A DNA stretch of 64,000 nucleotides from Tubulanus polymorphus. Lineage: Eukaryota; Animalia; Nemertea. Location of the stretch: contig NC_134025.1 in the NCBI RefSeq assembly GCF_964204645.1, positions 16,591,101 to 16,655,100 of the forward strand, read 5' to 3'. Positions 1,071-46,266 of the stretch are shown here, piece by piece; within the stretch, counting starts at the first letter, position 1; the number at the start of each line of letters is the position of its first letter. A program made the translations under genes and the position numbers. The notes under the pieces are model-generated. The model was given only the letters and a program-made list of their open reading frames with translations. It did no database searches and had not been told where the DNA came from.

Positions 1071-1221
1071 CAGCACCTCCTAAACATCCGTATCAGACGG
1101 TGTTTGAAAATATAACGATATCATATTACAAAGATTACATGATTACTTCAAATACATATTATTGTCGTATCAAATATAAGTAATTATCTCGCACATACAA
1201 ATACGAATTTAAGCAAGATAA

Positions 1222-5913: not shown

Positions 5914-6259
5914 GGGGTACCCGCAGTGCTACTGTGGCAATCGAGGATTCCACGTATGGCAGGCGAGGATCCACCAGGTGTCGCTAGTAGATAGTTGGTC
6001 GTCCACGTTCGATTTCGTCTACATTTCAATTAAACCTAAATTAACTTTTCTCTTAAATGAATGAATCATTTTTGGAAACTTTACCGATATCCGATTAGAA
6101 GAATGAAAGTATTGTATATTGGTAGGTGCTGTGATAGTATATGGATTGAGGAGTTCAAAAATCCAGTTCAAATGTCATTGAAAATGAACTAATTTTGACA
6201 ACGAACGACCTACTGCTTGTCGCGCCATCTGGTGGTATAGCTGGTTTCGCGGGTACCCC
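5914..6259. mobile_element. 346-bp MITE, 11-bp TIR GGGGTACCCGC, 2-bp AT target duplication (ISL2EU/Harbinger-like)
   Basis: GGGGTACCCGC at 5914-5924 and GCGGGTACCCC at 6249-6259; AT on both flanks; excision restores the gag frame. Confidence 0.85.
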
Positions 6260-7062: not shown

Positions 7063-7091
7063 GATGAGCTTTCGAGTAATTCAAACTATAA

Positions 7092-7514
7092 TGTTCTAAA
7101 TCGACGAAACGAATCCTCGAAAATCTATTGAACACGAAAGCACAGCTACATTTCAAACTCAGCGTGTTTATTTTAGCAACTAACGATGCTGCACTATGCC
7201 ATATAATGCCGGTTTGCTACAAATATGAAAATATATATATAAGTAATCAATTCAATTTATGCAAAGAAAACTAACCCACAGCAAATCTAAAAATTCGTTA
7301 CTTACAATTACTGTAGCTCCTCGAGCAAGTTTCTACGAAAATGACCAATGCTCAACTGTGAGATATTCAATATATACTGTATATATAATGTACTAGACTT
7401 AGTAACAACAAAGCATGGAGAGGTTCAATAAAGGGTTACAAATCCTACAGTACTAAAGCTAAACTCGACTACAATAAAATTCTATAGCAGCAAACCGGAC
7501 TTCAATTTACAACA
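7092..7514 (-). repeat. 5' LTR of BEL element
   Basis: Direct repeat of 648-1070; gag ATG at 7062 lies 30 bp downstream. Confidence 0.95.
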
Positions 7515-8333
7515 CCAAATAGAGAACTGAAGCTAAAACTGATTTTGAGAAAGATTTCTTCAAGTTAATGAACAATGCATTCTATGGTAAGACTTGTGAA
7601 AATATTAGAAATAGAAATGATATTGAGTTAGTTAGTAATGGCAAAAGGATAAGGCATTTACAAACATACCCTTAATATATAGGTAAATGGATAAGTTATT
7701 AATGTATGAATTCTATTATAATGTATTACAACCTCATTTTGGAGAAAAACATATAGAAATCTTATATTTTGATACCGATTCTTACATATTGAAGATAAAA
7801 ACTAATAACATAACAGATGATTTAAAAACATTAAAACATCATTTTGATCTTAGTAACTATCCTAAAGATCATGAATTGTTTAGCAATGATAATAAAAAAG
7901 TTCCTGGTAAATTCAAAGATTAATTAGGTGGTGAAGAAATGATTGAATTCATAGGTATTAGATCTAAAATGTATTCATAAAAAACTAAAGAACATGAAGC
8001 TAAAAAGTTAAAAGGAATAACCAAAAGTGTAGTAGAAAAGAATATTCATTTCAAAGATTACATCAATTGTATATTCAATGAAGAAGTTAGAAAACATAAG
8101 ATGAGATGTTTAAGATCTGAAGATCATGAAATGTTTATTGAAGAAATTGAAAAGATTAGTCTAAACCCATTTGATGATAAAAGATATATTTTAGATGATG
8201 GAATTCATACAGTTGCTTATGGTTGTAATTTAGATGAATACTTAAAATTTAAAAGAGAAGAAACAAAAGAAAATGAGATAATGAAAAGAATTCTAACGTG
8301 TTAATCAAATTTTAATAAAAATATGTATTATAA

Positions 8334-22498: not shown

Positions 22499-22588
22499 AG
22501 TAATTAGAAGATGGCGTTTTCATACCAGAGGGCGAGAGGGCGAGACACCACTCATCACCACAAGTAATTTTTTTCCCTAATAAATGGG
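22499..22588 (+). repeat. E2 left TIR (90 bp), ending in T7-CCCTAA-TAAATGGG
   Basis: Inverted copy at 38825-38914. Confidence 0.95.
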
Positions 22589-25500
22589 GGAGAATGAACA
22601 CCAACTAGAAAACAATAATGTCAATAAAAATCAATATTATTGTCAATATTGTAAAAAATACATCGATACATCTCATAAAACACGACATGAAAAAACTGCA
22701 AATCATATAAAAAAATGTAATAGATTTTGAAACTCCAGAAAATTCCAATGAAAGAAAAGAAAGATTAGAAAATATGAATGTGGATGAAATAAAATGTGAA
22801 GTTTGTAATGAATTTATAGTAAAAAGGAATTATAATAGACATCTCGAATCACAAAAACATTATAAAAATTTAAATAAAAATGTTTTAGAATTAGAATATT
22901 TTGATAATAAACCTCAACAAGTAAAAGAATCAACTAAATCCATTTCAAATAAACCTTACATGGAAAATGTTAGAAATTATATTGATTCACTAGAAATAAA
23001 AGATACAATTGAAATCTTAGAAACATTACATAGTAAAATTGGTCCTGCAGCTATTATATTTAGATTTTTTAAAGGTACAACAATAGAAGATTATAGTAAA
23101 TTTAATAAAATAATAGAAAAAATACTAGATTTGATAACAGATGTTGAATATCCAAAAATTAGTATTTCTGGGAAAGTAAGTTTTATAAAGTCAGAAGAAA
23201 AAATGAATTATAATATTCAAACACACTCTGAAGAAATAATTTCAAAAACACAAATAAAAGAGAAGTTAGAAAAAATATTAAATGAATTTAAACGTCATAT
23301 TGAAGAAAGATATTTTGAGGGTTCTGGCTTAACATTGAATGAAATTATATATTTAGATTTAAATGTTTATAATACAAAAAGAAATAAAACATCAAAAAGT
23401 AATAAAATGTTTAAAAATGATTCAAACTTTATAACAGAAAAAGATATGAAAGCATCAAGTTATATCAAATTACCGTTTACAACAAAAGCAGTAATAAATG
23501 TTCAAAATGAAGATAATAAATGTTTTCTATGGTCAATTATTAGTTGTTTACACCAAACAGAAGATATGACGCATAGTTTTAGAATAACAAATTACCGGAA
23601 ATATGAAACATTATATAAAATTGATCAATATCCAGTAACTATAAAAATGATTCCTAAAATAGAAAAAATTAATAATTTAAAAATAAATGTATTCGGATTA
23701 ATGCAATTACCAAAGACAAAAGGTGAAAATATTAAAGATTATACATTGGAAGCTTTATATTTAACAGAATATTATGATGATGAAAATGCTATAGATTTGT
23801 TATATTACAAAAAAGATGAAAATGAACATTATATGTGGTTAAAACAAATTGATTTATTCTTTAGAACAGAAAGTGATTTTAACAGCCATAAAATTTATCT
23901 ATGTAGAAAATGTTTATCTAAATAGAACTGAGTTTAGAACTGAGAATACATTATTAAAACATAAAGAATTATGTGATAATAAAGATTTTTGTAAATTAAT
24001 AATGCCAACAGAAAAAGATTATAAATTGAAATTTACTAATCATAAATTTAAAAATATTGTTCCATTTTTATTTATGGGGATTTTGAATCGTTGAATAAAG
24101 AATTAACTGATCAAGATAGAAAAGAAATATATAACAAAAAGCAATTATTAAAATCAATGGATAAAGGAAATGAATTAAATGAAGACGCAATACAAGACCC
24201 ACCAATTATAAATACAATTAAAGTTCATCAAAGAGCTGCTGCTTATGGAATTTACATCAAATCAAATTATCCCGAATTATATGAAAGTCAATATATTTCT
24301 TTTAGAGGTGAAAATGTAGTTAATGATTTTTGTGATAAAATGATTGAATTAGAAAGTGATTTTACAAAATTATTAAACAAAAATAAAAGAATAGTTATGA
24401 CAAAAGAAGATGAAATTGATTTTAATTATGCAACTCATTGTTGTTATTGTGAAAAACGTTTTTATTCATTTGATAAAAGAGTTAGAGATCATGATCATTT
24501 GAATTCAAAATATCGTGGAGCTGCTCATGAAGATTGCAATTTACAAGCTAAGAAAGTTAATTTCGTACCAATATTATTTCATAATTTATCAGGCTATGAT
24601 ACCCATCTATTTATAAAACAATTATCGGGAAAATTGGGCGCAATTAATCAAGAAATAGAAGAATATAATGCTATGAATGGTGTAAATGTAAGAAAATATG
24701 ATTTTAAACTATTAGCTAAAACATCTGAAAATTATATTTCATTTCAATTTGGTTGCATTAGATTTTTAGATTCTTATAGATTTCTAGCAAGTTCATTAGA
24801 TAATTTATCAAAAAGTTTAGTTGATAATGATTTTGTTATGACTCGATATTATTATCCAAATGAACAAGATTTTAAATTATTGAGATATAAAGGCGCAATT
24901 CCTTATTCATTTTATAAAACACATGATGATTTTAATGTAACAGAATTATTAAAAGATCAATTTTATGATCAATTAAAAGAGGAGTATGTGAAAGATGAAG
25001 TGTTTAATAGAACATTAAATATTTGGAACCATTTTAAGATGAAAAATCATGGTGAATTAGTTGATTTATATTTAAAATCAGATGTTATGATATTGGCTGA
25101 CATATTTGAAAAATTTAGAGAAGTTAATTTGAATCATTTTAATGTTGATCCTTGTTATTGTTATTCTAGTCCTGGTTTAACCTGGCAATGTGGTTTAAAA
25201 TATACAAATGTAGAATTAGATTTATTAAAAGAACCAGATATGGTTTTATTATTTGAAAAATCAATTAGAGGTGGAATTAGTGGTGTTATGGGAGATAGGT
25301 ATTTTAAAGCAAATGATGAATATAAATTATTATATATTGACGCCAATAATTTATATGGTTGGGCAATGATGCAACCTCAACCATATAAAAATTTTATATT
25401 AACAGAAGTTGAAAATGGTGATAAAACTGATTGGGAAAGCGCAATTATTAGTTTAAAAGATGAAGCACCAATTGGTTATTTCTTTGTAGTTGATTTAGAA

Positions 25501-27654
25501 TATCCTGAAAATATAAAGTTTAAAACAAGAAACTTACCTTATTGCCCAGAACATTTAACTGTAGATGATAGTTATTTAAGTGAATACCAGAAGAAAATAA
25601 AACCGAAAGATCATGTTTTTACAGAAAAATTAATACTTACTCAAAATAATAAATACAATTATATTGTTCATTATAGAATGTTAAAATTTTATCTAAAACA
25701 AGGAATGAAATTAAAGAAAGTACATAGATATATTGAATTTAATCAATCAAAGTGGTTAGAAAAATATATAGATTTCAATACTCAACAGAGAACCATATCA
25801 AAAACAGATTTTGAAAAAGATTTCTTCAAATTAATGAATAATAGTTTTTATGGTAAAACATGTGAAAATATTAGAAATAGAAATGATATTGAATTAGTAA
25901 ATAATTCTGAACGATTGAGACACCTACAATCAAGTCCTAGACATTTAGGAAATAAAAGATTTGAGGATTATTTAACCGCGGTAAAATTAAAAAGAACGTC
26001 TATTAAATTCAATAAACCTATATTTATTGGTTCGACTGTTTTAGAATTATCAAAATTACTAATGTATGAATTCTATTATAATGTATTACAACCTCATTTT
26101 GGGGAAAAGAATATAGAAATTCTATACTTTGATTCTGTTACAGCAGACACCCCAATATTATTAAAATGTAATGATAAAATATTGATAAGAAGAATTTCAG
26201 AAATAATTCCAAAACAAAATGAATGTTATATTTCATATGGAGAAAAAGAATTAATACAAATAAATGGTTTAATGGATGTTTGGACAAGAAATGGATGGAA
26301 AAAATTAAAGAATATAATTAGACATAAAACGAATAAGAAAATCTATAGAGTTAGAACTAAATTAGGATTTGTTGATATTACTGAAGACCATAGTTTGATT
26401 AAACAAAATGGTAATGAAATAAAACCAACTGATATAAAAATTGGAGATGAATTATTACATAAAAGATTTTTCCCAAGAATGAATCATATGTCATTTGATG
26501 AAATAATTGATAATATTTATAATATAGAACCCGAAACATTGGAAGAAAAAGAATATTTTATCAAAGGATTTTTCATGGGTGATGGTTCAGCAGGTGTGTA
26601 TAATTATGTTAGTGGAACTAAATATTGTTGGTATTTATGCAATCAAGACTTAAAATTATTAGAAAGAATTGAGAAATTCTGTGAAGAAGTTTATTCACAT
26701 AAAACATTCAAAATCATAGATGTTATGAAATCATCGCAATGTTATAGAATACATGTGAATAATCCTAAAGATTTTGCTATAAAATATAATAACGAATTCT
26801 ATATTCATGCAATAGTGAAAAGTAATACTTCAACAAAAGAAAAGATAGTTCCAGATTATGTATTAAATGCAAAAAATAATTTAAGAAAATGGTTCTTCAT
26901 TGGATTCTATGCAGCAGATGGTTCAAAAAGTTTCCAAAACCGCAAAACAATATCTTTAGCTCAAAAAGGAAAAGTTGCTATATCAGGATTGAATATATTA
27001 TGCACTTCATTAGGATTTAATATGAATATTGGATTGATTAAATCTAAACCAAATTGCTTTAATTTAAGCCATGTAGAAAATGAGTTAACAGAAGAAGTTA
27101 AGGATTTATTTGAAATATATAACCCAACAGATTATGTTTATGATTTATCAACTGAAGATGGTACATTTAACTGTGGATTTCCATTAATAGCGGTCAATAC
27201 TGACGCCTACATACTAAAAATCAAGACAAATAATATAACAAAAGACTTAAAAACATTAAAACATTATTTTGATTTTAGCAATTACCCCAAAGATCATGAA
27301 TTGTTTAGCAATGATAATAAAAAGATTCCTGGTAAATTTAAAGATGAATTAGGGGGTGATGAAATGATTGAATTTGTTGGGATAAGAAGTAAAATGTATA
27401 GTTACAGAACAAAAGATCATGAAGCTAAAAAGTTAAAAGGAATAACAAAACATGTGGTTGATAAACATATAGAATTTCAAGATTATATAAAGTGTTTATA
27501 TAAATCAATTGTAATGAAACACAAAATAAATTATTTAAGATCAGAAGATCATGAGATGTACATTAATGAAGTTGAAAAAACTAGTTTAAATCCATTTGAT
27601 GATAAAAGGCATATTTCAGATGATGGTATAAAAACATTACCTTATAGCCATTAA
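22584..27654 (+). pseudogene. pPolB of E2 (ZnF, OTU-like and Endo VII-like inserts, intein), three frameshifts
   Basis: ATG at 22584. Breaks at an A-run ~22710, a 10-bp duplication TAGAACTGAG ~23924 and ~24068. Motifs DNKCFLWSI, YGDFES, VRDHDH..RGAAH..CN, HNLSGYD, YIDANNLY, KLMNNSFYGKT. Confidence 0.9.
26134..27198 (+). other. 355-aa intein with LAGLIDADG homing endonuclease in pPolB motif C (YFD|TD)
   Basis: Block A SVTADTPILL, block B DITEDHSL, LAGLIDADG-like GFFMGDGS and GFYAADGS, block F YVYDLSTEDGTF, end IAVN|T. E1 and E3 have uninterrupted YFDTDSY. Confidence 0.95.
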
Positions 27655-28967
27655 AACATAAAATCAATATCATCATACTCGAAATCACTATTAGCTTCTT
27701 CATTTTCATTTAATTGTTCAGGTTCTTCTTCCATTCCATTTTTCTCATTTAAATAAATTTCTATCTTGTTCCACATTTCATCTCGCACTCTTTGTTTCTT
27801 TTTGTTTGTTAATTCATCAAATGGAATTATAATATCTAGGTTTAAATAATTTACAATCTTATTTAAAAAGAATTCATAATTTATTGAATCTGTTATTCTA
27901 TTTTCCAAATGATACATTAATATTTGTTTAAATATTTTTTTTATATTTTCCATATCTTCTTCTGTTAATTTAGGTTTTTCATAATAATCGTTAAATAATA
28001 AATATAAATACATTTTCTTTTGTTTTGTGTTAAATGTTGGTGGAATAATTGTTTTTATAATATCTTTTTTAGTTATTTCACCATTTTTATTTTCTATTAT
28101 TTTCATTTTTTCAAGCCATTGCATATATTCTGGTGTATGATCTTCTATAGAAAATATTTTAAAAATTTTATCAAGATAATTTAATTTTGGTTCTATAAGA
28201 AAATTTCTAGTTTTTTCTTCACCCCATAAATTCCTTTGCCATCCACAATCAACACAAAATAACACAGTACCTTCTTGCCTTAAGGTCGCATAAATACATT
28301 GTGGGCATTTTTGTTTATAATTTACTGGTAATAGATCTTCATTAAGCTCTTGGTATTTTCTTACGTTTTCTTTATGTTTTATTGTTCTATTATGTAGATT
28401 TGAATTACTTGTTGTAATAATCAATTTACAATATTTACAATAATATGTTTTTCTTGTTAATTCATTATATTGTTTTTCTAACTTTTTAACTGTTTCTTCA
28501 TTATCTGGTAACGTTTTCTCATATTTTATTTTTTCTAATAAATTATTTTTTCTTGCATTGAATTCAGTTTCAAATTTATTAGAAATTTTATCTATATGTA
28601 CTTTACGAAATTGATGATTCTCCCAATCTTCTATATTTTCAGGGTTATATTTTATTCGACAAGGCTCACAGAAATAATCTTTTATATTATCCTTATCATA
28701 GAATAAGAAAGGTCTTTTCCAAATAATTTCACGTTCAACTTCAACAGAATTATTATTACTTTCGTTACTGTCAACATTAACTATAAAGTTATTATTTTTA
28801 CACTTCTCCGAATGTTTTTTGAAATAATTTCTAGAGAATGTTTTATTACATTTTGGGCAGTTTATTTTAGGGGGTTTATAATTTTCATCATGTTTTTTCA
28901 TATGTCGAGCCTTATTACTTTTTCTTAGAAGTTCACCACAAATTTCGCATGCTATCTTCTCATCCAT
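27651..28967 (-). CDS. Zinc-finger protein fused to a poxvirus VLTF-3 (A2)-like late transcription factor domain
   Basis: N-terminal Cx2C..H..H fingers. C-terminal CPQC-x13-CVDC, RNFLIEPKLNYL, IFKQILMYHLEN..SINYEFFLNKI..DEMWNKI, matching the recalled vaccinia A2 pattern (CSGC-x13-CIFC, [35 protein letters not shown]..W). Confidence 0.75.
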   Translation of the reverse strand: MDEKIACEICGELLRKSNKARHMKKHDENYKPPKINCPKCNKTFSRNYFKKHSEKCKNNNFIVNVDSNESNNNSVEVEREIIWKRPFLFYDKDNIKDYFCEPCRIKYNPENIEDWENHQFRKVHIDKISNKFETEFNARKNNLLEKIKYEKTLPDNEETVKKLEKQYNELTRKTYYCKYCKLIITTSNSNLHNRTIKHKENVRKYQELNEDLLPVNYKQKCPQCIYATLRQEGTVLFCVDCGWQRNLWGEEKTRNFLIEPKLNYLDKIFKIFSIEDHTPEYMQWLEKMKIIENKNGEITKKDIIKTIIPPTFNTKQKKMYLYLLFNDYYEKPKLTEEDMENIKKIFKQILMYHLENRITDSINYEFFLNKIVNYLNLDIIIPFDELTNKKKQRVRDEMWNKIEIYLNEKNGMEEEPEQLNENEEANSDFEYDDIDFMF

Positions 28968-29035
28968 TTATTAAGGAAAAATTTTATTAAAATTAATTTT
29001 TAGTGATGAGCGGTAATTTTTTTATGTTATAAATA

Positions 29036-29834
29036 ATGGTAGAATTAAAAGAATACAGAATATTTGTTGATTCTAGAAAACTTATAAATTATAAATCTCA
29101 TAATTTATTAGTACAATTAGATAGAGAATTTAAGAATTGTGTAGATTTAAAATTAGTAAATATAAGTTTATGTAATTCTTTTTATAATATATCGGATAAA
29201 ACTGATGAACATAGAAGCCTTCTTATTTTTGATAAACTTGAAAAAAAATGGATTCATGCTTATGCTTACACCAGGATTATATGATTTAGAAACATTAGAG
29301 CAAGAAATTAATAGAAAAGCTCGGATTAGATTAGGTAATGGTAATTCTAAATTTTATATTAAATTCATAAAAAGTGAGAGCTCTAATAAAATTAAAATAA
29401 AGCTTGATGATGAACTTATTAAACTTGATAAATCTAATCCATTGATGACAAGAAGACATACTTACACGGTAAAAAAACCTATAGCTAAACTATTAGGAAT
29501 TACTCCAAATCAATTTGGTGGAAACAAACACGGTAACTCAAATATAATACCTTTTACACACTTTTATATTTATTGCAATTTAATCGATCCTACAAAAACA
29601 TTCGAAGCAACTAAAGATACAACATGTAATTCTAGTATATTTAACATTTTACCATTGAAGAATGTTAAACAATTTGGAACGCAAATAAATTATAATTTAG
29701 CTGAATGTGATTTTAAACCTTGTATTCCACATTTCAATAATTTTAAATTAGAAATAAGAAATCATAATGGTTATTTAATTGATTTGAATAACTTTCTTGT
29801 AATTTATGAATTAGTTATAAGATGTAAAGAGTAA
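29036..29834 (+). pseudogene. Minor capsid (penton-like) protein, one frameshift ~29245
   Basis: Two ORFs that together align to the E3 253-aa protein. Confidence 0.8.
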
Positions 29835-29850
29835 TTTTTCACCCATATAA

Positions 29851-30204
29851 ATGAATATAACTGTTGGACCGAGTATATGTTTTGGATTTGATTTTAAACG
29901 TGAGAAAGAAATGAAATCTAACATTAATGATGTAATTACACATATCAAAAATATTGCATTTTCTAATGAAACAACATTTGAGTATGAAACAACAATAGAT
30001 AAAGAAACTTTAAATGTAGAAAAGATTACTAATTTAATTAGAGAATCTTTAAGATTTTATGAATTAGATGAAAATTTTATAATCGATGATATTAAGAAAA
30101 TAATAATTGAAATATATACAAATGAAACTAGTAATGAAATAAATGTTGAATTAATCATAAATAAGTTAACTAAATATTTTGAAGTTAGTAATTTTTTTGA
30201 TTAA
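29851..30204 (+). CDS. Hypothetical 117-aa protein
   Basis: Homolog of 47433-47774 (MNITVGPSICFGFDFK); TAAATG start. Confidence 0.8.
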   Translation: MNITVGPSICFGFDFKREKEMKSNINDVITHIKNIAFSNETTFEYETTIDKETLNVEKITNLIRESLRFYELDENFIIDDIKKIIIEIYTNETSNEINVELIINKLTKYFEVSNFFD

Positions 30205-30207
30205 TAA

Positions 30208-30429
30208 ATGAGTGATAATAAGTGGATAATAACTGGATTATATAATGGCGCATTACTATCAGTTGGAACGGTTGGTTATTCAATGGTATTAAAAAAAGTA
30301 TTCAAAATGGGAAGTGTTAATGTTGATAGATTTGATATAAATGATATTTTAAAGTTAACATTAGCAGTTACTTTATCTAATTTAACTATTGATTATTTAG
30401 AAAAACAAAAATATATTCCTCCCATATAA
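30208..30429 (+). CDS. 73-aa small hydrophobic protein
   Basis: Identical protein in E3. Confidence 0.88.
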   Translation: MSDNKWIITGLYNGALLSVGTVGYSMVLKKVFKMGSVNVDRFDINDILKLTLAVTLSNLTIDYLEKQKYIPPI

Positions 30430-30454
30430 ATGTGTAATTTTTTTTGTTAAATAA

Positions 30455-30877
30455 ATGGCTTCTGCAATTATAACTATTATAGGATCGGCAATTGTTAACG
30501 CTTTAGCATTTACTGGTGGTGGATATTTATTTAAACATATTGATAAAAATAGTTCATTAGGAGAACAAAGAAGACATAACTTAGCGTTAGAGAAATACAA
30601 TAAAGCTGCAGAAGAATATAGAGAAAAGAGACAAAACTATATGGATTACATCAATAAAGAATTATATGATCAGAAGATTTCACATAGAGATTTTCAATCA
30701 GTTGATGATGCAATGAGTTTATATAACGCAGTAACAAATAAAGAAAAATTACATCTATACAAACCTAAATTATCAGATTATTATACCCCAAGTAAAGAAC
30801 AACAGAAATATGAAATAATATGGATTTTAGGTGGAACAGTTATTGTTATATTTGTTGCTTATAAGTTTACTAATTAG
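30455..30877 (+). CDS. 140-aa protein with hydrophobic N- and C-termini
   Basis: Near-identical in E3; canonical T8-GTTAAA-TAAATG start. Confidence 0.88.
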   Translation: MASAIITIIGSAIVNALAFTGGGYLFKHIDKNSSLGEQRRHNLALEKYNKAAEEYREKRQNYMDYINKELYDQKISHRDFQSVDDAMSLYNAVTNKEKLHLYKPKLSDYYTPSKEQQKYEIIWILGGTVIVIFVAYKFTN

Positions 30878-30896
30878 TAATTTTTATTCTAAATAA

Positions 30897-31331
30897 ATGG
30901 AAGATAAAGTTGATAGTATTGATATTATTCCTCATGATATAAATAAAACTAAATTAAAAACATATTTAGAAAAACAAATATTAGAATTTGAAAGTGACTT
31001 AAAGATAAAAAAGAAAAAATATTTAAAAAGTAAAATTATATATTATTTGATTATAAGTGGTTCGGTTACAATTAGTTCTGTAATAACATTTCTAGCAATA
31101 TTCAGCCCATTAACACCTTTAGCTATATCAATTGGTGTATTAGGATTAAGTTCAAGTGTTTTAACTGGTATAAGTTCAAAATTAAATATAAAAAGTAATA
31201 AAGAAAAAATCAAAACTAATATAAAAGAAATTAATAAATTAAAGAACACACTAGATTATATAATAAGTTTAAATGGCCATATAACAGTTGAAGAACAAGA
31301 TAAATTATTAAAAGAATTAATAAATTATTAA
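30897..31331 (+). CDS. 144-aa two-TM coiled-coil protein
   Basis: Central hydrophobic hairpin; near-identical in E3. Confidence 0.88.
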   Translation: MEDKVDSIDIIPHDINKTKLKTYLEKQILEFESDLKIKKKKYLKSKIIYYLIISGSVTISSVITFLAIFSPLTPLAISIGVLGLSSSVLTGISSKLNIKSNKEKIKTNIKEINKLKNTLDYIISLNGHITVEEQDKLLKELINY

Positions 31332-31347
31332 TTTTTTAGTTATATAA

Positions 31348-32685
31348 ATGGGGTTTCCAAAAGCTTTCCAATATAATAAATCACATGAATATTATAAATA
31401 TAATACTCCAGCAATAGATTTTAGTAACATGATAATATATAAAAATTTAGTTTTACCTTCATTGATTAATTTAGAAATTTATGTTACTGAAACAAACTAT
31501 TTTATTTCTAAAATGGAAAATATATTTAATACATATGAAGTTACTTTTACTCGAGATGAATATAATATATATAAAGTAAAATCTAATATGAAATATTGGC
31601 AGAATCAATTAAATTTTGCTGTTCATTGTGCAACAGCTGGTTGTGGTGTAAGTTGGTATGATCACTTGAATAACTTAGATAAAAATTTGAAATATTCTGA
31701 TTTAAAATTCATTCATACAATATTTAGATTTCATGTATACTTTCAAATTAGAATTATATTAAATGAATTAGAATGCCCTTTACCTGGATCAAAATATCTT
31801 AAAGAATTAGATAATAATATTAATCTATCTAAGTTTTATAAAATATGTAATGAATTTAATATAAATATTAATTTCGATTTTAGAGCGCATGGTAAATTGC
31901 AAGGTGTCGGTGAACAGTATGAAATAAAAAGAATTGATTATATGCATAGAATTGGAGCTTATCATAATTATAAAATTAATAATAATAATGGTTGGGTTTA
32001 TTTTATTGAATCTTATAGTGAAGGATTTACAAAACCCGGTATACAAAGAATAAATCAATCAATTAGAACTTATTTGATATGTATTTTAGGTGCACAAGTT
32101 GAAACAAGATCACCAATAGTTGGAAATAATAGTACTTCATTTGATGCGCAGAAACAATTCAAAGTATTATTTGAAGATTCCATTCATAATGATAAAAATA
32201 GATCGATTCCAGAAAACATTGTAAGATATCAAAATTATTTAGATAAATCACATATTAGATTAAATTATTGTATAGGACCTAATCTATTAATTATTTCTAA
32301 TGATTTAGTATTAAAGATGGGAAATATAATTGGTTATAATAATCTAATTAAAACTGCAACAATAAATAATTCAATTGGATTAAATGATATAAATAAAAAG
32401 ATTATTACTGCTCCAAAATTAATGGAAGGTGAAAAAAATAAAAAACATATTCAATCAACAGAAACTAAAACTAATAATATTAAATTAAATAATGATTCCA
32501 AAATAAAAGATTACAATACTATAGAAAATGGTGCCGTACGGCACCCACACGGTGATATTAAAACCGATAAAATTCAACATGATATAATTAAACTAAATGA
32601 TGATAATAAATCCCATGAAAATACTAAATTAGCTATAACTTGTATAGGAATTGTAATCGGAGGAATATTATATTTTAAATTTTAA
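31348..32685 (+). CDS. 445-aa conserved protein with C-terminal TM anchor
   Basis: WQNQLNFAVHCATAGCG, YLICILGAQVETR; homologs in E1 and E3. Confidence 0.88.
   Translation: MGFPKAFQYNKSHEYYKYNTPAIDFSNMIIYKNLVLPSLINLEIYVTETNYFISKMENIFNTYEVTFTRDEYNIYKVKSNMKYWQNQLNFAVHCATAGCGVSWYDHLNNLDKNLKYSDLKFIHTIFRFHVYFQIRIILNELECPLPGSKYLKELDNNINLSKFYKICNEFNININFDFRAHGKLQGVGEQYEIKRIDYMHRIGAYHNYKINNNNGWVYFIESYSEGFTKPGIQRINQSIRTYLICILGAQVETRSPIVGNNSTSFDAQKQFKVLFEDSIHNDKNRSIPENIVRYQNYLDKSHIRLNYCIGPNLLIISNDLVLKMGNIIGYNNLIKTATINNSIGLNDINKKIITAPKLMEGEKNKKHIQSTETKTNNIKLNNDSKIKDYNTIENGAVRHPHGDIKTDKIQHDIIKLNDDNKSHENTKLAITCIGIVIGGILYFKF
32530..32556 (+). repeat. GC palindromic micro-insertion GGTGCCGTACGGCACCCACACGGT(GAT)
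   Basis: Absent from the E1 and E3 orthologs; adds 9 codons. Confidence 0.85.
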
Positions 32686-32701
32686 TTTTTTCATTATGTA
32701 A

Positions 32702-34140
32702 ATGGATGTAGAAGGTGGAGAAGATATTGGAATGGATCCTTTTGATGAACCTGACATAACTGATGAACAACCACCTGATTTTGATGAAACAAGTTTTAAT
32801 GATGGTAATGAACCAGAATATAACAATAATTTGAATATGCCTGATTATATTAAAAATGCTGAATCACAATTAAATCCTGAAAATTTAGACCCATATTTAG
32901 TAAAACAAGATTTAGATAATTTAAACAAAATACCTAAATTAGAATATTTAATTGAAAAATCTAATTTTAACATAAATGATGAAGACGTTGGACTTTTAGC
33001 AGATCAATTGAAATTTTTAGATAATGGTAAATGTTATTATCGTTTGAAAGGTGATTATTATATTGATATCACTTATAAAAATAATAAAAATAAAATATTA
33101 TCAGAATCAACTTTAGAAAAATTAAAACCAGATAGAATTAAAATAATAAGTAATAGTAATGAAATAACTGATGTTACACAAAAAGAAATAGATGATAATA
33201 TAGATGTATTTAAACAAAGAATTAATGAATTATTTGAAATAATCAAAAAGAAATCAGAAACAGAAACAACTTCTGAACAGAATATAACTTCCAAAAATAG
33301 TAAACTTAGATCAAATAAAGTTCCAATTGAAAAACTTTTACCGAATGGATTATTTGATGCAACAGATCAAGAATTAGAAGATTTAGATATATTTTCTGAT
33401 AAAGCAATTAGAGAAATTATTAGTATAAGACTTGCATCTGATAAAATTGCACATAATAAAAGTATAAGAGATCAAAAAATTATGTATTTGGAAAAAGAAT
33501 TAACTGATAAAAATAAAGAAATAGAACAATTAAAGTCTGATTTAGATCATCAAGTAATTGATGAAATAGAATATAGGCAAAAAGAATTACGTTTAGAAAA
33601 AGAAATTAGTAATTTAAAAGATAATTTAGAAGTACAGAAAGAAGAAATTAAATTATTATTAAAATCATATGATTATAATATTAATAGATTAAAAGTTATT
33701 TTTAAAGATTTGTTGATTAAACCAAATTCTGAAATATCATTAAAAGACAGGATGAAGTTATTATTTAAATTAGAAGGAATAACAATTCTTTCAATTCTAA
33801 CAGCTGTAACTATGTTATTTACAACAATTGGTTTAGCAATATCAAATGCTTTGAAATCTACTCCTACTCCCACTCCAATAAACCAGATAAACCTCCAGGT
33901 AATAATTCTATACAAGATAAAGTTAAGGATGGTTTAAAGAAATTAGCAAAATATTTATGGGAACTATCTAAAAAATCTGCTGCAGCATTGCCAGGAGTTA
34001 TTGCATCAATTGTTGGTTTTATATTGAAATCTGCAGGAAACATTATTAACTTTGCTGCTGAACATATTATTTTATTTTTAATTACAGTTGTAAGTGCTAT
34101 TATTTTTGGGTTAGTAAATATGATATCAAAAAATAAATAA
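32702..34140 (+). pseudogene. Large acidic/coiled-coil membrane protein, 1-bp frameshift ~33878
   Basis: CCCACTCCAATA vs CCCACTCCCAATA in E3; C-terminal TM block is out of frame. Confidence 0.82.
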
Positions 34141-34160
34141 TTAATTTTTTTGTTAAATAA

Positions 34161-35408
34161 ATGAGTGGGAGTTATATAAGTCCTTCGAAGAATCATAGAA
34201 TATCTAATGCTATTAAAGCAGAAAGATTACATCATATAATTACTCATAACCCTTCAAATATTAATCCCGATGAAACTTTATACGTGAGGATTCCTCGATT
34301 AACACAAAATACTTTTTATGTTCCAAATAGTATTTATTTATCAGCTGATATAAAAGTAATCGGTAATAATAATAATTATGTTGTTGATAATGTTGGAAGA
34401 TATTTGATTAAAAAGTTAACAATAAAGATTGGTCCAGAAACAGTTTTCTCATTAGATGATTATAATTTATTTTCACATTATAAAGATTTATGGTTAACTA
34501 AAGAAAATAGAAATAATATGATATTTCAGGGTATTCAATCAGAAAACCAAAATAAATTAAGATCTGAAGCCAATAACGCAGTAGTAAATAATGGTGTAGA
34601 TAATTTGATTAAAAGTATATATGGAAGCAAATATAAAATTCCATTAGACTTTGAATTGATAAATAATAATGCACCTTTATATAAATACGCAATTCAAGAA
34701 GATATTATATTTGAGATAACATTTGCTCCTGTAAATGAAATTGTATTATCTAGCGTTGTTAAAGATATGGGTTATAAATTATCGAATATATGTTTAGAAT
34801 ATAACACAGTAACTAATGAAAATATTGCTAGCACAATTCAAACTCAATACAATCAAGGATTTTCATTATTATATGATTATATTGATAAATTTAAAACTGT
34901 AACTATTAATGCAAATGATGAAATTATTAATGAGAATATTAACTTCCCAAGAAGATCTATTAAAGGTATATTAATATTTTTTACTATTGCAACATATTCT
35001 AATGGTGCAATAAATGTTGATAATTATTATAATCCTGAAATAACAAAAGTAGAAATAACTATCGAAGGAATAGCGAATAAAATATTTTGTCAAGGAATGA
35101 GAATGATTGATCAATGGGTAGAAATTAAAAAACATTTTATGAATGAAAAAGTAAAATCATTTGAAAATTGTAATATTAATCAAATTGATTATTATACCGG
35201 TAATAAATATGCATTATGGTTAGATTTTAGAACAACTGAAGATAATTCATTACATGGTTCTGGGAAAAAACTACAGAACACTAAAGATGGAATACAATTA
35301 TTTATGAAAAAGAATAAAGGAATCAAAAATTTTAAAATGCACATTTATATTATATCTGACGCGCAATTAAATATTGTAAATTCACAATTAGATAGTATTC
35401 AATATTAG
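34161..35408 (+). CDS. Major capsid protein (double jelly-roll), 415 aa
   Basis: Size, beta-rich pattern, VDNVGRYLIKKLTIKIG and YKIPLDF motifs resembling DJR capsids; most conserved large gene in all three elements. Confidence 0.8.
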   Translation: MSGSYISPSKNHRISNAIKAERLHHIITHNPSNINPDETLYVRIPRLTQNTFYVPNSIYLSADIKVIGNNNNYVVDNVGRYLIKKLTIKIGPETVFSLDDYNLFSHYKDLWLTKENRNNMIFQGIQSENQNKLRSEANNAVVNNGVDNLIKSIYGSKYKIPLDFELINNNAPLYKYAIQEDIIFEITFAPVNEIVLSSVVKDMGYKLSNICLEYNTVTNENIASTIQTQYNQGFSLLYDYIDKFKTVTINANDEIINENINFPRRSIKGILIFFTIATYSNGAINVDNYYNPEITKVEITIEGIANKIFCQGMRMIDQWVEIKKHFMNEKVKSFENCNINQIDYYTGNKYALWLDFRTTEDNSLHGSGKKLQNTKDGIQLFMKKNKGIKNFKMHIYIISDAQLNIVNSQLDSIQY

Positions 35409-35438
35409 AAATATAAAGTTAAAATTAAGGATATATAA

Positions 35439-36566
35439 ATGAGTGGTAAAAAAACTCCTAATACTAAAGAACAATATTTAAGAAATTTATATTACAACCC
35501 TGAGAGTTCGGTTGCTTATTCTTCTACTAAAAATATATGGCGTAAAGTAAAACAAGATAAATTAGATAAGATAATCCCACAAAATTTAGTTAAATATAAA
35601 GATATAAATGAATTTATGTTAGAACAACCAACATATACAACACATAAAAAAATTGTTAGAAAATATAAAACTCGTAAAACTATGGTAAGTTATGTAGATC
35701 AACAGTGGCAAGGAGATTTAATTGATATGAAAAATGTTAAGAAAGATAATGATGATTATTGGTGGTTATTGAATATAATTGATATTTTTAGTCGTTATGT
35801 ATGGAGCTTCCCACTTTATAGAAAAGATGCTGTACAAACATCAAATGTTTTAAGAAAATTTCTTTCGGATGATAAACTAAAACCAGAAAAAATACAATTT
35901 GATGATGGAAAAGAATTTGATAATTCACTTGTTCATGAACTCTTAGATAATCATAATATTAAATATTTTTCAACAAAATCAGATAAAAAAGCAGCAGTTG
36001 TTGAACGATTTAATAGAACATTAAGAACAAGAACGTGGAAATATTTTACAGCAAATAATACTTTTAAATGGATTGATGTTTTACCAAAATTGATAGAAGG
36101 ATATAATAATTCTTATCATTCTTCTATTGGAATGAAACCTATTGATGCTAGAAAATCTGAAAATGCTGAAATTGTTTGGAATAATTTATATGGAGCATTT
36201 CTTATAGATGATTTTGGTGAACCTAAATTTAAAGTTGGTCAAAATGTTAGAATTTCTAAGTATAAAAAGATATTTGATAAAGGATACGATCGAAATTTTA
36301 CTAGAGAAATATATAAAATAAAAAAGGTAATAACAACAAAACCATATGTCTATAAATTAGAAGATTTAGATGGTGAAGAAGTTGATGGCTACTTTTACGA
36401 AGAAGAATTAAGTTTAACTACTGAAAATCTAGAACAAGAATATAAAATTGAAAAAGTACTAAAAACAAAAACTGTTAAAAGAAAAAAATATTCTTTAGTA
36501 AAATGGGTTGGATGGCCAGATAAATTTAATGAATGGATATTATCAAGTAAAATTAAAAATATATAA
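35439..36566 (+). CDS. RVE (DDE) integrase with C-terminal chromodomain-like region
   Basis: QWQGDLIDM, IDIFSRY, IQFDDGKEF, AVVERFNRT; YKIEKVLK..LVKWVGWPDKFNEW. Confidence 0.94.
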   Translation: MSGKKTPNTKEQYLRNLYYNPESSVAYSSTKNIWRKVKQDKLDKIIPQNLVKYKDINEFMLEQPTYTTHKKIVRKYKTRKTMVSYVDQQWQGDLIDMKNVKKDNDDYWWLLNIIDIFSRYVWSFPLYRKDAVQTSNVLRKFLSDDKLKPEKIQFDDGKEFDNSLVHELLDNHNIKYFSTKSDKKAAVVERFNRTLRTRTWKYFTANNTFKWIDVLPKLIEGYNNSYHSSIGMKPIDARKSENAEIVWNNLYGAFLIDDFGEPKFKVGQNVRISKYKKIFDKGYDRNFTREIYKIKKVITTKPYVYKLEDLDGEEVDGYFYEEELSLTTENLEQEYKIEKVLKTKTVKRKKYSLVKWVGWPDKFNEWILSSKIKNI

Positions 36567-37175
36567 ATGAATAAGGAATTATTTATATTTGAGCCTCATA
36601 ATATGTTAATTTCTGGTGTAACAAATTGTGGAAAAACTTATTTTATATTAAATTTATTAGAAACTGTTTATGAAAACTATTTTGATAATATAGTATTATT
36701 TTGTCCAACATATGAATTTAATCAAACTTATGATAGAAATATTACTAGAAATAATAAATTTATTATATTAGATCCTAAAACAGTAAAAGAAAATTTAGAT
36801 AATTGTATAAAAATAGCAATTGATATTTATAAAGGATCAAATACATTATTCATTATAGATGATTGTGCTAATCTACATGATTCAAAAGTTAGAGAAAGTG
36901 AGTTATGTTATTTAGCTTTCTCTGGTAGACATTTTGGGATAACAACATGGGTTTTAAATCAGAAATATAATTCAATTGTGAAAGATTTTAGAGAGAATAT
37001 AAGATTTCTAGTTTTATTTTACAATAAAGATAGAAAATCGATGAAAAATGCACTTGAGGAAAATGATATTATTCCACATGATTTACATAATGAATATATG
37101 GATGAGTTGAAAAATATTAAAAGATCAAAATTACTATTTAGATTACAACACCCATTTAAATATGAATTTATTTAA
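36567..37175 (+). CDS. A32/FtsK-like genome packaging ATPase
   Basis: GVTNCGKT, LFIIDD, SGRHFG, NQ. Confidence 0.93.
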   Translation: MNKELFIFEPHNMLISGVTNCGKTYFILNLLETVYENYFDNIVLFCPTYEFNQTYDRNITRNNKFIILDPKTVKENLDNCIKIAIDIYKGSNTLFIIDDCANLHDSKVRESELCYLAFSGRHFGITTWVLNQKYNSIVKDFRENIRFLVLFYNKDRKSMKNALEENDIIPHDLHNEYMDELKNIKRSKLLFRLQHPFKYEFI

Positions 37176-37182
37176 ATTCAAT

Positions 37183-37430
37183 TAGTTTGTTAATCTAGTT
37201 GAATTCTAGTTATTGGTAGTTGTAACAAAAATCAAATAGATTTAACAATATTTTAACTAGCTTGTTAATCTATTTTAATTCTAGTTACATTCTAGTTGAA
37301 TTCTAGTTGTTAGTAGTTGAAACAAAAATCAATTAGATTTAACAAGAAATAAATAAAAACAACAATATTTCAACTAGCTTGTTAATCTAGTTGAATTCTA
37401 GTTACATTCTAGTTAAATTCTAGTTGTAAC
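37183..37430. repeat. Intergenic repeat rich in CTAGTT/GAATTC palindromic units
   Basis: CTAGTTGAATTCTAGTT repeated; about two longer imperfect copies. Confidence 0.8.
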
Positions 37431-37459
37431 ATCACATAATTAATTTTTTTGTTATATAA

Positions 37460-38065
37460 ATGGTAGGTGAAAAGAAAATAAAATCTAAAAATGGTAATGT
37501 TCCAATTGAAAAAACTTTAGATGATTTAGGAATAACAGAAACAAAATTAACTCCAGATGATGGTGCTTTAAATATTGTTACAACAAATAATAATTATGAA
37601 TATTATCTTTATTGTAAACATCAATTAGAAATATTAATAGCATCTGGAAAATGTAAAAATTTTGTCGGTAAAAATTTAACTTATAATGAATTAGATACAA
37701 TGAAATCAGATGAAATTATTAGATTATTTAAGATTTATGAAGCCGCGAGAACAGCTAGAATTAATGACGCGATATCAGAAAATGTAGTAAAAGGTTATAG
37801 TAAATTATGTAATTATATACTACCAATTGAAGATGAAAATAGATTATATTCCGATTTAAAAAATGATTATTTAGTTATGACTGAATTAAATAAATGGATT
37901 GGATATTTATCATTTCAATTAGGTGGATTTATGACATTATTATCAACTGGGGTTATAACATTTTCAAATATTGAAAGTAAAAATATTTCTATAATAAATG
38001 AGCGAGGTGAAAGAAGTGAAGGAATTAACTGTGAAGAAAAAACCGAGAACTCAGAAACAAATTGA
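37460..38065 (+). CDS. 201-aa conserved protein
   Basis: YEYYLYCK, LKNDYLVMTEL; homologs in E1 and E3. Confidence 0.85.
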   Translation: MVGEKKIKSKNGNVPIEKTLDDLGITETKLTPDDGALNIVTTNNNYEYYLYCKHQLEILIASGKCKNFVGKNLTYNELDTMKSDEIIRLFKIYEAARTARINDAISENVVKGYSKLCNYILPIEDENRLYSDLKNDYLVMTELNKWIGYLSFQLGGFMTLLSTGVITFSNIESKNISIINERGERSEGINCEEKTENSETN

Positions 38066-38366
38066 ATGGTCTCGGCAATTAGGAATTAAATCACAAGAAT
38101 ATAAAAAAGCTGTAAAAGAAAAAATAAGTAATAAAAATGTTAATAAAAATGGTGAAAATATTGTTATTTCTACTCCTTCTGATAGTAGAATATTTGATAA
38201 ATATTTATATTTTACAGTTGGATTTGTAATTGTATTCATTTTGATTGGGTGTAATTGGTATAAGAAATCAAATAAAATTCATGATATTAGTAATTCTGAA
38301 CCAACTGCTATCAAAAATGAAAATACTTCTGAAATTCCAAAATTGATAATAAAAAAAATGGATTAA
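37998..38366 (+). CDS. 122-aa basic single-TM protein
   Basis: RTQKQIEWSRQLG; homolog of 56774-57154. Confidence 0.82.
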   Translation: MSEVKEVKELTVKKKPRTQKQIEWSRQLGIKSQEYKKAVKEKISNKNVNKNGENIVISTPSDSRIFDKYLYFTVGFVIVFILIGCNWYKKSNKIHDISNSEPTAIKNENTSEIPKLIIKKMD

Positions 38367-38398
38367 TATTTTAGAAAAAAAGCAAAAAAAATAATTGA

Positions 38399-38465
38399 AT
38401 ATCTCACTACTTTTGTCTATCCATGCGGAGCAATTAAATTGTCCAGATAAGTCATTTCGGATTCT
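38399..38465. other. Conserved non-coding motif shared by all three elements
   Basis: ATATCTCACTAC.TTGTCTAT..GGAGC..GTCCAGATAAGTCATTTCGGAT also at 57993-58090 and (rc) 18650-18719. Confidence 0.75.
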
Positions 38466-38502
38466 AGATATTCATTATTTTTATTAATTTATTTTTTTAA
38501 AT

Positions 38503-38829
38503 TTAATCAACAATTTCTAAATCATGATGACCGTCTTCATTTTTCCCATGATATATTATTTTAAATCCTACTAAATCTTTCAATTCCTCCATACTCAATG
38601 AAACCCATTTATCAGGTAAAAACACTTTAAATTCTCGCGATGTACTAACATTACAGTAGCTTAAATTAGCTGATACTTTCTCTCCATATTTAGTTTTTAT
38701 CTTTTCTAATTTCAATATTTTATGTTCAATTTCTTTTGTAACATCAATTAACTTTTTTATTTCAAATTGTTTTTTTGCTGGTTTTATTCTGTTATTTATT
38801 GTTGCTAAGAATGCTTTTCTATCTCCCAT
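38503..38829 (-). CDS. 108-aa homolog of the ~115-aa putative OB-fold protein
   Basis: KTKYGEK..VFLPDKW..YHGKNEDGHH; starts inside the right TIR. Confidence 0.8.
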   Translation of the reverse strand: MGDRKAFLATINNRIKPAKKQFEIKKLIDVTKEIEHKILKLEKIKTKYGEKVSANLSYCNVSTSREFKVFLPDKWVSLSMEELKDLVGFKIIYHGKNEDGHHDLEIVD

Positions 38830-38914
38830 TTATTAGGGAAAAAAATTACTTGTGGTGATGAGTGGTGTCTCGCCCTCTCGCCCTCTGGTATGAAAACGCC
38901 ATCTTCTAATTACT
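38825..38914 (-). repeat. E2 right TIR (90 bp)
   Basis: Reverse complement of 22499-22588; supplies the ATG of ORF 38503-38829. Confidence 0.95.
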
Positions 38915-45100: not shown

Positions 45101-46266
45101 AATACCCTGAAAATATTAAATTCAAATCTAGAAATCTAGCATATTGTCCCGAACATAAAACTGTTAAACATGAAGAATTATCAAATTATCAAAAAAGAAT
45201 TAAACCCGAAAATCATATTCATACTGAAAAGTTAATGGTAACTCAAGAAGATAAATATAATTATGTACTACATTATAGAATGTTAAAATTCTATTTGAGA
45301 CAAGGAATGATATTAAAAAAAGTACATAGATATATTTCATTCAGTCAATCTAAATGGTTAGAAAAATATATAGATTTTAATACTACACAGAGAACTAAAT
45401 CTAAAACTGATTTTGAAAAAGATTTTTTTAAGTTAATGAATAATGCGTTCTATGGTAAGACTTGTGAAAATATTAGAAATAGAAATGATATTGAGTTAGT
45501 TAGTAATGGTAAAAGGATAAGGCATTTACAATCATATCCTAAGTTTATAGGTAACAGAATATTTGATGAAAATTTAGCAGCAGTTAAAATGAAAAGAACT
45601 TCAATGAAATTTAATAAACCAATTTATGTTGGAGCTGCAGTTTTAGAAATTTCAAAGCTATTGATGTATGAATTCTATTATAATGTATTACAACCTCATT
45701 TTGGAGAAAAGCATATAGAAATCTTATATTTCGATACTGACAGTTACATATTAAAGATAAAAACTAATAACATAACTGATGATTTAAAAACATTAAAACA
45801 TCATTTTGATTTCAGTAACTATCCAAAAAATCATGAATTGTTTACCAATGATAATAAAAAAGTTCCTGGGAAGTTTAAGGATGAATTAGGTGGTGAAGAA
45901 ATGATAGAGTTCATTGGTATTAGATCTAAAATGTATAGTTATAAAACTAAAACTCATGAAGCTAAAAAGTTAAAAGGAATTACCAAAAGCGTTGTTGAAA
46001 AGAATATTCATTTTAAAGATTACATCAATTGTATATTTAATGAAGAAGTTAGAAAACATAAAATGAAATGTTTAAGATCTGAGTACCACGAAATGTTTAT
46101 TGAAGAGATAGAGAAGATAAGTCTAAACCCATTTGATGATAAAAGATATATTTTAGATGATGGAATCCACACAGTCGCCTATGGTTGCAATTTAGATGAA
46201 TATATAAAATTCAAAAGAGAAGAAACAAAAGAAAATGAGATTATGAAAAGGATTCTAGCGTGTTAA
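42199..46266 (+). CDS. Protein-primed DNA polymerase B, intact (likely start 42232)
   Basis: N-terminal Zn fingers, DDKCFLWAI (OTU-like), YGDFES, Endo VII-like VRDHDH..RGAAH..CN insert, HNLSGYD, YIDANNLY, KLMNNAFYGKT, YFDTDS, KLKGI, FDDKR. Confidence 0.96.
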   Translation: MFNFNKKFSIKMEANKYYCPTCNINIDKSQKARHNKTKTHLENKLKLEYKDDILETKLEELKNEKETYKCDTCNQSFSDKRYYKEHLKSISHIRNKNNDILGEDYFDNDNDKKQKTIKRIKNKLNNKRPYMEDVRNYINSLDNKKDIEITEAFKSDIGPAAIEFKFHKGKTIEENKKHLENMKEIIKIITDVEYPKISISSKVKFIKSEDKPIYNINSHSQHIISKQHIDDKLDKCYNEVKTKIEEKYFEGSGLIFDEIIFMTLHVYNTKYNKLTKSKPIDENNVSYYKEPDIEALSYIKLPFKTNAVINVQNEDDKCFLWAIISCLQPTEDITHSFRLTHYKPFENNYKIDKYPVIIKDIPKIERDNNLRINVFDLIKLPNTKGNNIKHYTLEPLYLSKDYDSKDVIDILYYENHYMWIKRIDLFFKSENDFDNKIYLCRKCITKFRTESALLNHKQLCDNHDYCKLVLPNEKDKVLEFKKYDYKNKVPFVIYGDFESLNKELTDKDRKDIYYKRKKLNSNESDYSEEPPKTNTIKKIHQSAAAFGLYIKSDYVELIESEYYNYRNENVINHFCDLLIEYEIRFSKLLNTNKEIIMTEEDKEEFVFADKCYYCEKIFNYKDKKVRDHDHLNGKFRGAAHENCNLQAKKINFVPVIFHNLSGYDAHLFIKQLCHKIEEINNEIEILNSNRLKDDKVSTYKFKMLAKTSENYISFQFGCLRFIDSYRFLSSSFDNLSKSLVDDELQILKQHYPNNDDFQLMRYKGAIPYSFYKSHNDFNITELLKEQFYDELKNEYVKDEVYNRTLNIWNHFEIKNHGQLVDLYLKSDVLLLTDIFERFRDVNLKYFNIDPCHCYSSPGLTWDCGLKFTDIKMDLLTNIDQLLLFEKSIRGGVSGVLGDRYFNVNDNPGYKLLYIDANNLYGWAMMEPQPYGMFEITEVLQIDKFDWKKRILDIADDSETGYFFVVDLEYPENIKFKSRNLAYCPEHKTVKHEELSNYQKRIKPENHIHTEKLMVTQEDKYNYVLHYRMLKFYLRQGMILKKVHRYISFSQSKWLEKYIDFNTTQRTKSKTDFEKDFFKLMNNAFYGKTCENIRNRNDIELVSNGKRIRHLQSYPKFIGNRIFDENLAAVKMKRTSMKFNKPIYVGAAVLEISKLLMYEFYYNVLQPHFGEKHIEILYFDTDSYILKIKTNNITDDLKTLKHHFDFSNYPKNHELFTNDNKKVPGKFKDELGGEEMIEFIGIRSKMYSYKTKTHEAKKLKGITKSVVEKNIHFKDYINCIFNEEVRKHKMKCLRSEYHEMFIEEIEKISLNPFDDKRYILDDGIHTVAYGCNLDEYIKFKREETKENEIMKRILAC

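Follow-up and report, generated by a model that had tools for sequence, protein, structure and literature searches.

The closest described relatives of the insert analysed here are the pol-c inteins of Mimivirus and other giant viruses, which, in the sections available of two sources (PMC549080, PMC5784728), are likewise of the Asn type, carry a homing endonuclease, begin with Ser and occupy the equivalent YxD/TD motif. Their host is an RNA-primed PolB (PF00136), whereas the intein here interrupts a protein-primed PolB (pPolB, PF03175), and its carrier, unlike theirs, is chromosomal and multicopy, with intein-bearing (plus) and empty alleles in one nucleus. Archaeal PolB inteins (PI-PkoII; the Tli and Mja pol-c inteins) have the same Hint and LAGLIDADG architecture, but they live in a prokaryotic host and share 15-16% identity with this intein in structural alignment; PI-PkoII, with 537 aa, is a different allele in length.

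Viral-like DNA polymerase inteins have also been placed on scaffolds of the nuclear genomes of two algae, Klebsormidium and Tetrabaena, and of a labyrinthulid, Hondaea, together with an intein in the Pol delta of Chloropicon, according to the part of PMC10710043 available to us. The first three resemble our case in being viral polymerase inteins of eukaryotic nuclear genomes; their carriers, on the other hand, are algae and a protist, and that portion of the text names no Polinton, Maverick, animal or metazoa. In Polintons themselves, HNH and VSR nuclease inserts are known from pPolB2, the HNH-bearing form also in oomycetes (Jeong et al. 2023, PMC10748475, in extract), and Krupovic et al. 2024 suggest, in the passages at hand, that the nuclease inserts of pPolB result from intein invasions (PMC11071308). 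What these inserts share with ours is a nuclease domain within a Polinton polymerase. They stay in the protein, no splicing domain is reported for them and the extract from Jeong et al. is without the terms intein, Hint or LAGLIDADG, whereas the insert here is a full Hint intein that splits the catalytic motif. Free homing endonucleases occur in PLVs (PMC12220804, in extract).

For animals, a review describes metazoan genomes as being without inteins, which is a basis of the case for intein-directed drugs (PMC8529194), and a survey of inteins in eukaryotes (PMC5784728) records them solely from large DNA viruses, fungi, algae and some protists, both as far as the portions available extend. The literature searched yielded no report of a Polinton carrying a Hint intein; the datasets behind PMC10710043 and PMC5784728 could hold one. 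What we describe is a known kind of element in a new host-gene class and, probably, in animal chromosomes, and it sits in an endogenous virus-like element rather than in a host gene. The Hedgehog/Hint autoprocessing domains of animals have the Hint fold in common with this intein; they are without an endonuclease and do not lie in a foreign gene with exact empty alleles.

Positions 26134..27198 of the forward strand of the window (the whole 64-kb stretch of DNA analysed) form a stop-free frame of 1,065 bases that encodes 355 aa, from Ser1 to a terminal Val-Asn, and is followed by Thr. A preliminary description had proposed such an insert, S to N and then T, in the catalytic YxD/TD motif, and this is borne out by the translation and by alignment with an intact neighbouring empty pPolB, in which the insert is the sole large gap and falls exactly between YFD and TD. 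All 42 empty homologues aligned have zero residues in the intein columns. The proposed equivalence with the pol-c site likewise holds (YFD/TD here, YGD/TDS there; PMC549080, available in part), with homologues at the same site. The features of the locus are collected in Table 1.

Table 1. Coordinates of the intein, its host polymerase, the Polinton E2 and neighbouring elements in the window
Feature	Position	Strand	Basis or remark
Full intein, Ser1 to Asn355, 355 aa	26134..27198	+	Translation, domain profiles, PDB matches, AlphaFold model
N-terminal Hint part (block A Ser1; block B Thr83, His86)	26134..26463, end approximate	+	TIGR01445, aa 2-88
LAGLIDADG homing endonuclease domain, Asp150 (block C), Asp262 (block E)	26539..27072, bounds approximate	+	Pfam LAGLIDADG_3; model; I-DmoI matches
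C-terminal Hint part: block F Asp337, block G Val354-Asn355, +1 Thr of C-extein	27130..27201	+	
Open frame, exonuclease/polymerase part of pPolB, intein at YFD/TD	24052..27654	+	Pfam DNA_pol_B_2 (PF03175), E 6.8e-19
N-terminal pPolB piece, ends in stop, then frameshifted stretch	22711..23925	+	
Polinton/Maverick element E2, 16,416 bp	22499..38914	+	AG...CT ends
E2 left terminal inverted repeat, 93 bp	22499..22591	+	98.9% against right repeat
E2 right terminal inverted repeat	38822..38914	-	
E2 6-bp target duplication	22493-22498 and 38915-38920		
rve integrase with chromodomain, open	35439..36566	+	Pfam rve, E 2.4e-10; Chromo, E 2.3e-4
A32-type packaging ATPase, open	36567..37175	+	Pfam Pox_A32, E 2.5e-13
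Candidate major capsid protein	34161..35408	+	Capsid_N, E 0.076, weak
Empty site YFD/TDSY, decayed element E1	7765..7785	+	
Empty site, left-arm pPolB of 41635-63686 element (E3)	45727..45747	+	
Empty site, right-arm duplicate pPolB of 41635-63686 element	59574..59594	-	
BEL/Pao LTR retrotransposon in pPolB of E1	646..7515	-	LTRs 426 bp, 99.5% alike

Profiles and structure agree on the nature of the insert. Its N-terminus scores 29.5 bits against TIGR01445, above the cut-off of 24.5, and the insert matches Pfam LAGLIDADG_3 at E 1.9e-6; the match to Pfam Intein_splicing (PF14890; E 3.1e-7) reaches 30.8 bits, below the cut-off of 35.8, and the same profile scores above its cut-off in the related inteins P0053 and P0054. 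PI-PkoII is the best PDB match by sequence (E 7.6e-8). With an AlphaFold model (pLDDT 75, from a 13-row alignment), the first nine PDB matches in Foldseek were homing-endonuclease inteins, the best being TliVMA, PhoVMA, PI-PkoII, PI-PfuI and PI-SceI (E 9e-15 to 5e-8), and I-DmoI is also among the structural matches. The Hint-domain match on which the preliminary description staked its proposal is thus present in both kinds of search.

The insert has the features of a full class-1 intein: a Ser1 nucleophile, a terminal Asn355, a +1 Thr and exact empty alleles. Thr83 and His86 of the block B TxxH, and the block F Asp337, are invariant in all 12 full Polinton inteins (41-86% alike), as are Ser1, Asp150, Asp262 and Asn355. 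Invariance of these seven positions at such divergence indicates that both splicing and nuclease residues have been kept, each of the two LAGLIDADG motifs retaining its acidic residue (Asp150 and Asp262); blocks A, B, F and G and the paired LAGLIDADG motifs had been recognised correctly from the start. Judged by its sequence, the insert is a real, full class-1 intein with a LAGLIDADG endonuclease and no chance pattern.

The penultimate residue is Val354 in place of the usual, non-obligatory His. The preliminary description identified it correctly, but its exceptional status does not survive comparison: among 129 inteins the residue before the last Asn is His in 59, Lys in 52, Tyr in 5, Ser in 5, Val in 3, Phe in 3 and Ala in 2, and Lys, Tyr, Ser, Phe, Ala and Val are all found there in open giant-virus-type polymerases. 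With 70 of the 129 lacking His and two others carrying Val, we rejected the residue as a novelty. Composition, too, gave no sign of a recent foreign origin, the GC (0.255) and GC3 (0.15) of the intein matching those of the exteins (0.24-0.25 and 0.12-0.18).

Class-1 inteins splice through an acyl shift at Ser1, transesterification by the +1 Thr and cyclisation of the terminal Asn. In the protein predicted here, Ser1 would undergo an N-O acyl shift aided by the Thr and His of block B, the +1 Thr would then attack, and Asn355 would cyclise with the help of the block F Asp. Splicing is predicted to restore the YFDTD motif, a step that would be needed because the polymerase could not work without it.

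The carrier, E2, combines terminal inverted repeats, AG...CT ends, a 6-bp target duplication, a pPolB, an rve integrase and a packaging ATPase, and by these features of its sequence it is a Polinton/Maverick that was recently inserted. For the candidate capsid protein a PDB search returned no match and a single-sequence fold reached a pLDDT of 33; domain scans of the genes in the window gave no family match for a protease. As first described, the intein is open although its host gene is broken upstream: the pPolB has a stop at about 23.92 kb, followed at 23.93-24.07 kb by some 130 bp in which the homologous coding lies in another frame, and the E2 copy is therefore probably inactive.

To place the intein among its relatives, two homologue searches were run, which returned 22 and 153 proteins, 142 of them listed. 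Eighteen of the 142 have exteins that match these pPolBs and P0055 is one more pPolB according to Pfam; the same intein is found in at least 19 other pPolB clusters, with four short entries carrying little extein. Some of these clusters are large (136, 121, 55 and 17 members) and lie on contigs of up to 1 Mb, as expected for multicopy chromosomal elements. Of the Atlas rows, only that of a look-alike cluster names taxa, with Cnidaria on one record. The remaining listed relatives comprise the Chloropicon Pol delta, topoisomerase II and RNA-primed PolBs with YGD/TDS-type sites. Searching 1.84 billion representatives with a profile yielded 3,233 matches at E 0.001; the best 150 contained 148 new rows, with 132 RNA-primed PolBs, six topoisomerases II, ten unclassed proteins and no pPolB-type extein. 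The preponderance of RNA-primed PolB (132 of 148) argues that the intein family is centred on giant-virus-type PolB, with members also in a green-algal nuclear Pol delta (P0092) and in topoisomerases. A scan of viral contigs with P0052 as query found no relative, and scans with the intein alignment recovered three viral and five metagenome loci at 27-37% identity, one of which (L001) is the PolB of a giant-virus MAG.

Several side observations concern these relatives. In topoisomerase II the same intein family occupies more than one site, once with two inteins in one protein (topoisomerase II and two-intein entries: P0100, P0121, P0347, P0449, P0453, P0466, P0472 and P0479), and many giant-virus-type PolBs carry two related inteins. 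One intein-bearing pPolB, P0058, is filed in NCBI as a hypothetical protein on a 2.5-kb contig of a clam-symbiont bacterial MAG and is probably clam host DNA contaminating that MAG.

The preliminary description also called for an intein phylogeny against pol-c. A quick tree of 81 rows grouped all 12 full Polinton inteins together (SH-aLRT 90-94). A more careful tree of 53 rows placed a long-branch row, P0114, inside the Polinton group, which only 7% of bootstraps kept whole; after removal of two long-branch rows, the resulting unrooted tree of 51 rows united all 12 Polinton inteins on one branch (100/100) and joined this branch to ten RNA-primed PolB inteins at 94/87. These ten neighbours share a GxPLIxKN-like ending, and one of them, P0063, is 100% identical to a gene of a giant-virus MAG. 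Identity to giant-virus PolB inteins reaches 41%. Among the Polintons, intein identity (41-86%) tracks extein identity (38-84%; rho 0.72, 36 pairs).

One branch of 12 inteins, diverging in step with their polymerases, indicates that the capture was old and not specific to E2, and since diversity is greatest on the giant-virus side, the simplest account, and a likely one on these trees, is that a giant-virus PolB donated the intein once. The transfer from an NCLDV PolB to a pPolB proposed in the preliminary description is accordingly retained in its direction, the nearest non-Polinton relatives being giant-virus PolB inteins, but not as an event particular to E2. The distant pPolB P0055 combines an intein 41-49% identical with an extein only 21-26% identical to the others, a mismatch hinting at a second jump that an AU test (p 0.27) leaves unsecured. 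The first route may have been co-infection of Polinton and giant virus, which we infer only.

We then addressed mobility with an extein tree built without the intein columns. It comprised 11 plus and 42 empty rows (30 of 119 new homologues beyond the top ten were sampled), required at least seven changes, or nine with six partial proteins that had been left out, and rejected the plus rows as one clade (p-AU 1.7e-50). At least seven gains or losses among 53 polymerases make the presence of the intein patchy. A finer view comes from the P0053 cluster, where the 15 members listed out of 136 include seven plus alleles, five empty alleles with an exact gap of 346 aa and three uninformative ones. 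Plus and empty alleles are 94-99% alike, and one empty allele, P0192, shares 99% identity with plus alleles. Compared with the plus allele, all five listed empty alleles diverge most near the insertion point: of the 40 residues flanking it, 9-12 are changed, as opposed to 1-5% in the remainder of the protein (p 2e-4 to 2e-10), and most of the differences lie no farther than 20 residues away. The flank of the plus allele resembles those of other subfamilies.

Such clustering would be expected from homing accompanied by co-conversion; alternatively, it can reflect selection of empty sites that resist cutting. Under either account the endonuclease would have been active. On this sequence pattern, the intein likely still spreads by homing among related Polintons. 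Mechanistically, the endonuclease would cut empty pPolB sites of near sequence, and repair from an intein-bearing copy would transfer the intein together with a few flanking codons, either in the nucleus or during replication of the element. Divergence of the target would confine the intein to subfamilies, and for that reason the other subfamily in the window would stay empty. As a separate observation, several empty P0053-type pPolBs (P0180, P0234, P0254, P0258, P0262, P0266 and P0290) read D/CDS instead of D/TDS, a possible target-resistance change in the catalytic motif.

The window itself gives a different picture from the P0053 cluster with respect to its own empty sites. The three empty YFDTDSY alleles announced in the preliminary description do exist, but two of them (45727 and 59594) lie in the two arms of one element's inverted repeat, so that the three come from two elements, both of a subfamily other than that of E2. 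Around the site, 7 of 30 bases are different between them and the E2 flanks, and co-conversion between E2 and the neighbouring empty subfamily was rejected, the same-codon share being 0.70 and 0.52 beside the site and 0.66 elsewhere. Together with the separation of the subfamilies in the reads described below, this leaves the suggested homing into the neighbouring empty alleles of the window without support. The neighbouring empty pPolB carries an endonuclease VII/HNH domain.

Reads extend the comparison to the host genome. The stretch is present in four of ten listed runs, all from one study, and we added a raw-read run (X5) from a second study that carries the same species label. In X5 the intein is covered at a depth of 89-258 and the left flank at 3.4, a ratio of about 25 to 75 that is a rough estimate taken from a single flank bin; the intein is present in roughly tens of copies in the host genome. 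At the 5' junction, 177 reads of this run continue into the intein, and 129 or more run on into an empty site instead, the tails of the latter matching, by eye, the other subfamily; none of the five joints listed at 88% likeness skips the intein exactly. These junctions indicate that both types of allele are present in one nucleus, each within its own subfamily. In the E2 subfamily the plus alleles appear fixed. Of the 24 intein variants best supported by reads (from 40 of 147 rows), third codon positions account for 17 (p 2e-4), and the frame is kept in most reads, with one 1-base loss in 10 of 65.

Taken globally, the preferred reading is a complete class-1 intein, predicted to splice, whose likely origin is a single old acquisition from a giant-virus PolB and which is likely maintained by homing between close Polinton copies; we give it a probability of roughly 0.78. 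A rival reading, which we consider unlikely, keeps a real and splicing intein that is now merely inherited with its Polinton lineage and at times precisely lost, homing having stopped. The correlated divergence of intein and extein (rho 0.72 over 36 pairs), the lack of exchange between subfamilies in this genome and the apparent fixation of plus alleles in the E2 subfamily all fit such a history. Inheritance with loss sits less easily with the retention of both endonuclease Asp residues in 12 of 12 inteins, with flank differences that cluster at the site in five of five listed empty P0053 sisters, and with the seven or more changes on the extein tree.

The read variants weigh on another proposal, that the insert is a dead or splicing-defective relic in which Val before Asn marks decay: their bias towards third positions and a frame intact in most reads, the 1-base loss in 10 of 65 aside, speak against it, as do the six residues besides His, Val among them, that occupy the penultimate position in open giant-virus-type polymerases. 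Even granting that His is the commonest residue there (59 of 129) and that the host gene of the E2 copy is broken, we hold decay to be very improbable. As little credit goes to a different donor (cellular Pol delta or another gene) or to transfer from Polintons to giant viruses, an option kept in play by the unrooted tree and by family members in Chloropicon Pol delta and topoisomerase II. In that tree the inteins of Chloropicon and of topoisomerases are distant, whereas the nearest neighbours are giant-virus-type PolB inteins that share the GxPLIxKN terminal signature, and by far the larger diversity is found among giant viruses. A further rival, which we hold unlikely, accepts the element and the intein but assigns them to a protist, fungus or oomycete, in which case they would extend the viral inteins already known from algal nuclear scaffolds. 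In its favour are a window in which the scans matched no host gene or RNA family, the HNH-bearing pPolB2 of oomycetes and the viral-like PolB inteins on algal and labyrinthulid nuclear scaffolds; against it stand the recent BEL/Pao element nested in the array, which is our main clue to an animal host, the Cnidaria record and P0058. On balance an animal host is very probable.

A bolder form of the preferred reading holds that animals carry working, homing-competent, giant-virus-derived inteins in their Polinton polymerases, long resident, in tens to more than 100 germline copies in several animal genomes and still converting empty copies in nuclei, as a trace of giant-virus and Polinton co-infection in the animal line; for this we see even odds. 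If true, it would amount to a natural protein-level selfish drive within endogenous viruses of animals. With a multicopy intein family in chromosomal Polintons, the rule that metazoans are without inteins would be restricted to host genes. The intein adds a new extein class, protein-primed PolB, at a known site, shows a transfer, at a single conserved motif, between polymerases that are only remotely related, and provides sequence evidence of DNA exchange between Polintons and giant viruses. Because plus and empty alleles 94-99% alike coexist within clusters, eukaryotic nuclear repeats become a setting in which to test homing, co-conversion and target resistance. Studies of splicing chemistry also gain natural inteins of the Ser/Asn/Thr type in which the residue before Asn is His, Lys, Ser or Val.

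Lastly, the surroundings of E2 deserve description. A domain scan of the window found no host gene and an Rfam scan of its 64 kb gave 0 matches. Three related Polintons (1-21910, 22499-38914 and 41635-63686) fill most of it with spacers of 0.6-2.7 kb; packed this closely, they may mark a hot spot for insertion or a silencing cluster. The third, of about 22 kb with AG...CT ends and a 6-bp target duplication, has inverted repeats of 4,627 bp that are 99.8% alike and each contain a whole open pPolB, with an imperfect palindrome at 54490-55015 where the gene direction turns; this structure may be a snap-back or strand-switch product, or an assembly artefact. Within E1, a gene contains a 24-bp tandem repeat expansion (14722-14961). 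The pPolB of E1 is interrupted by a recent BEL/Pao element with an open pol of 1568 aa, BEL/Pao being described as a metazoan subclass in the part available of PMC3118150.
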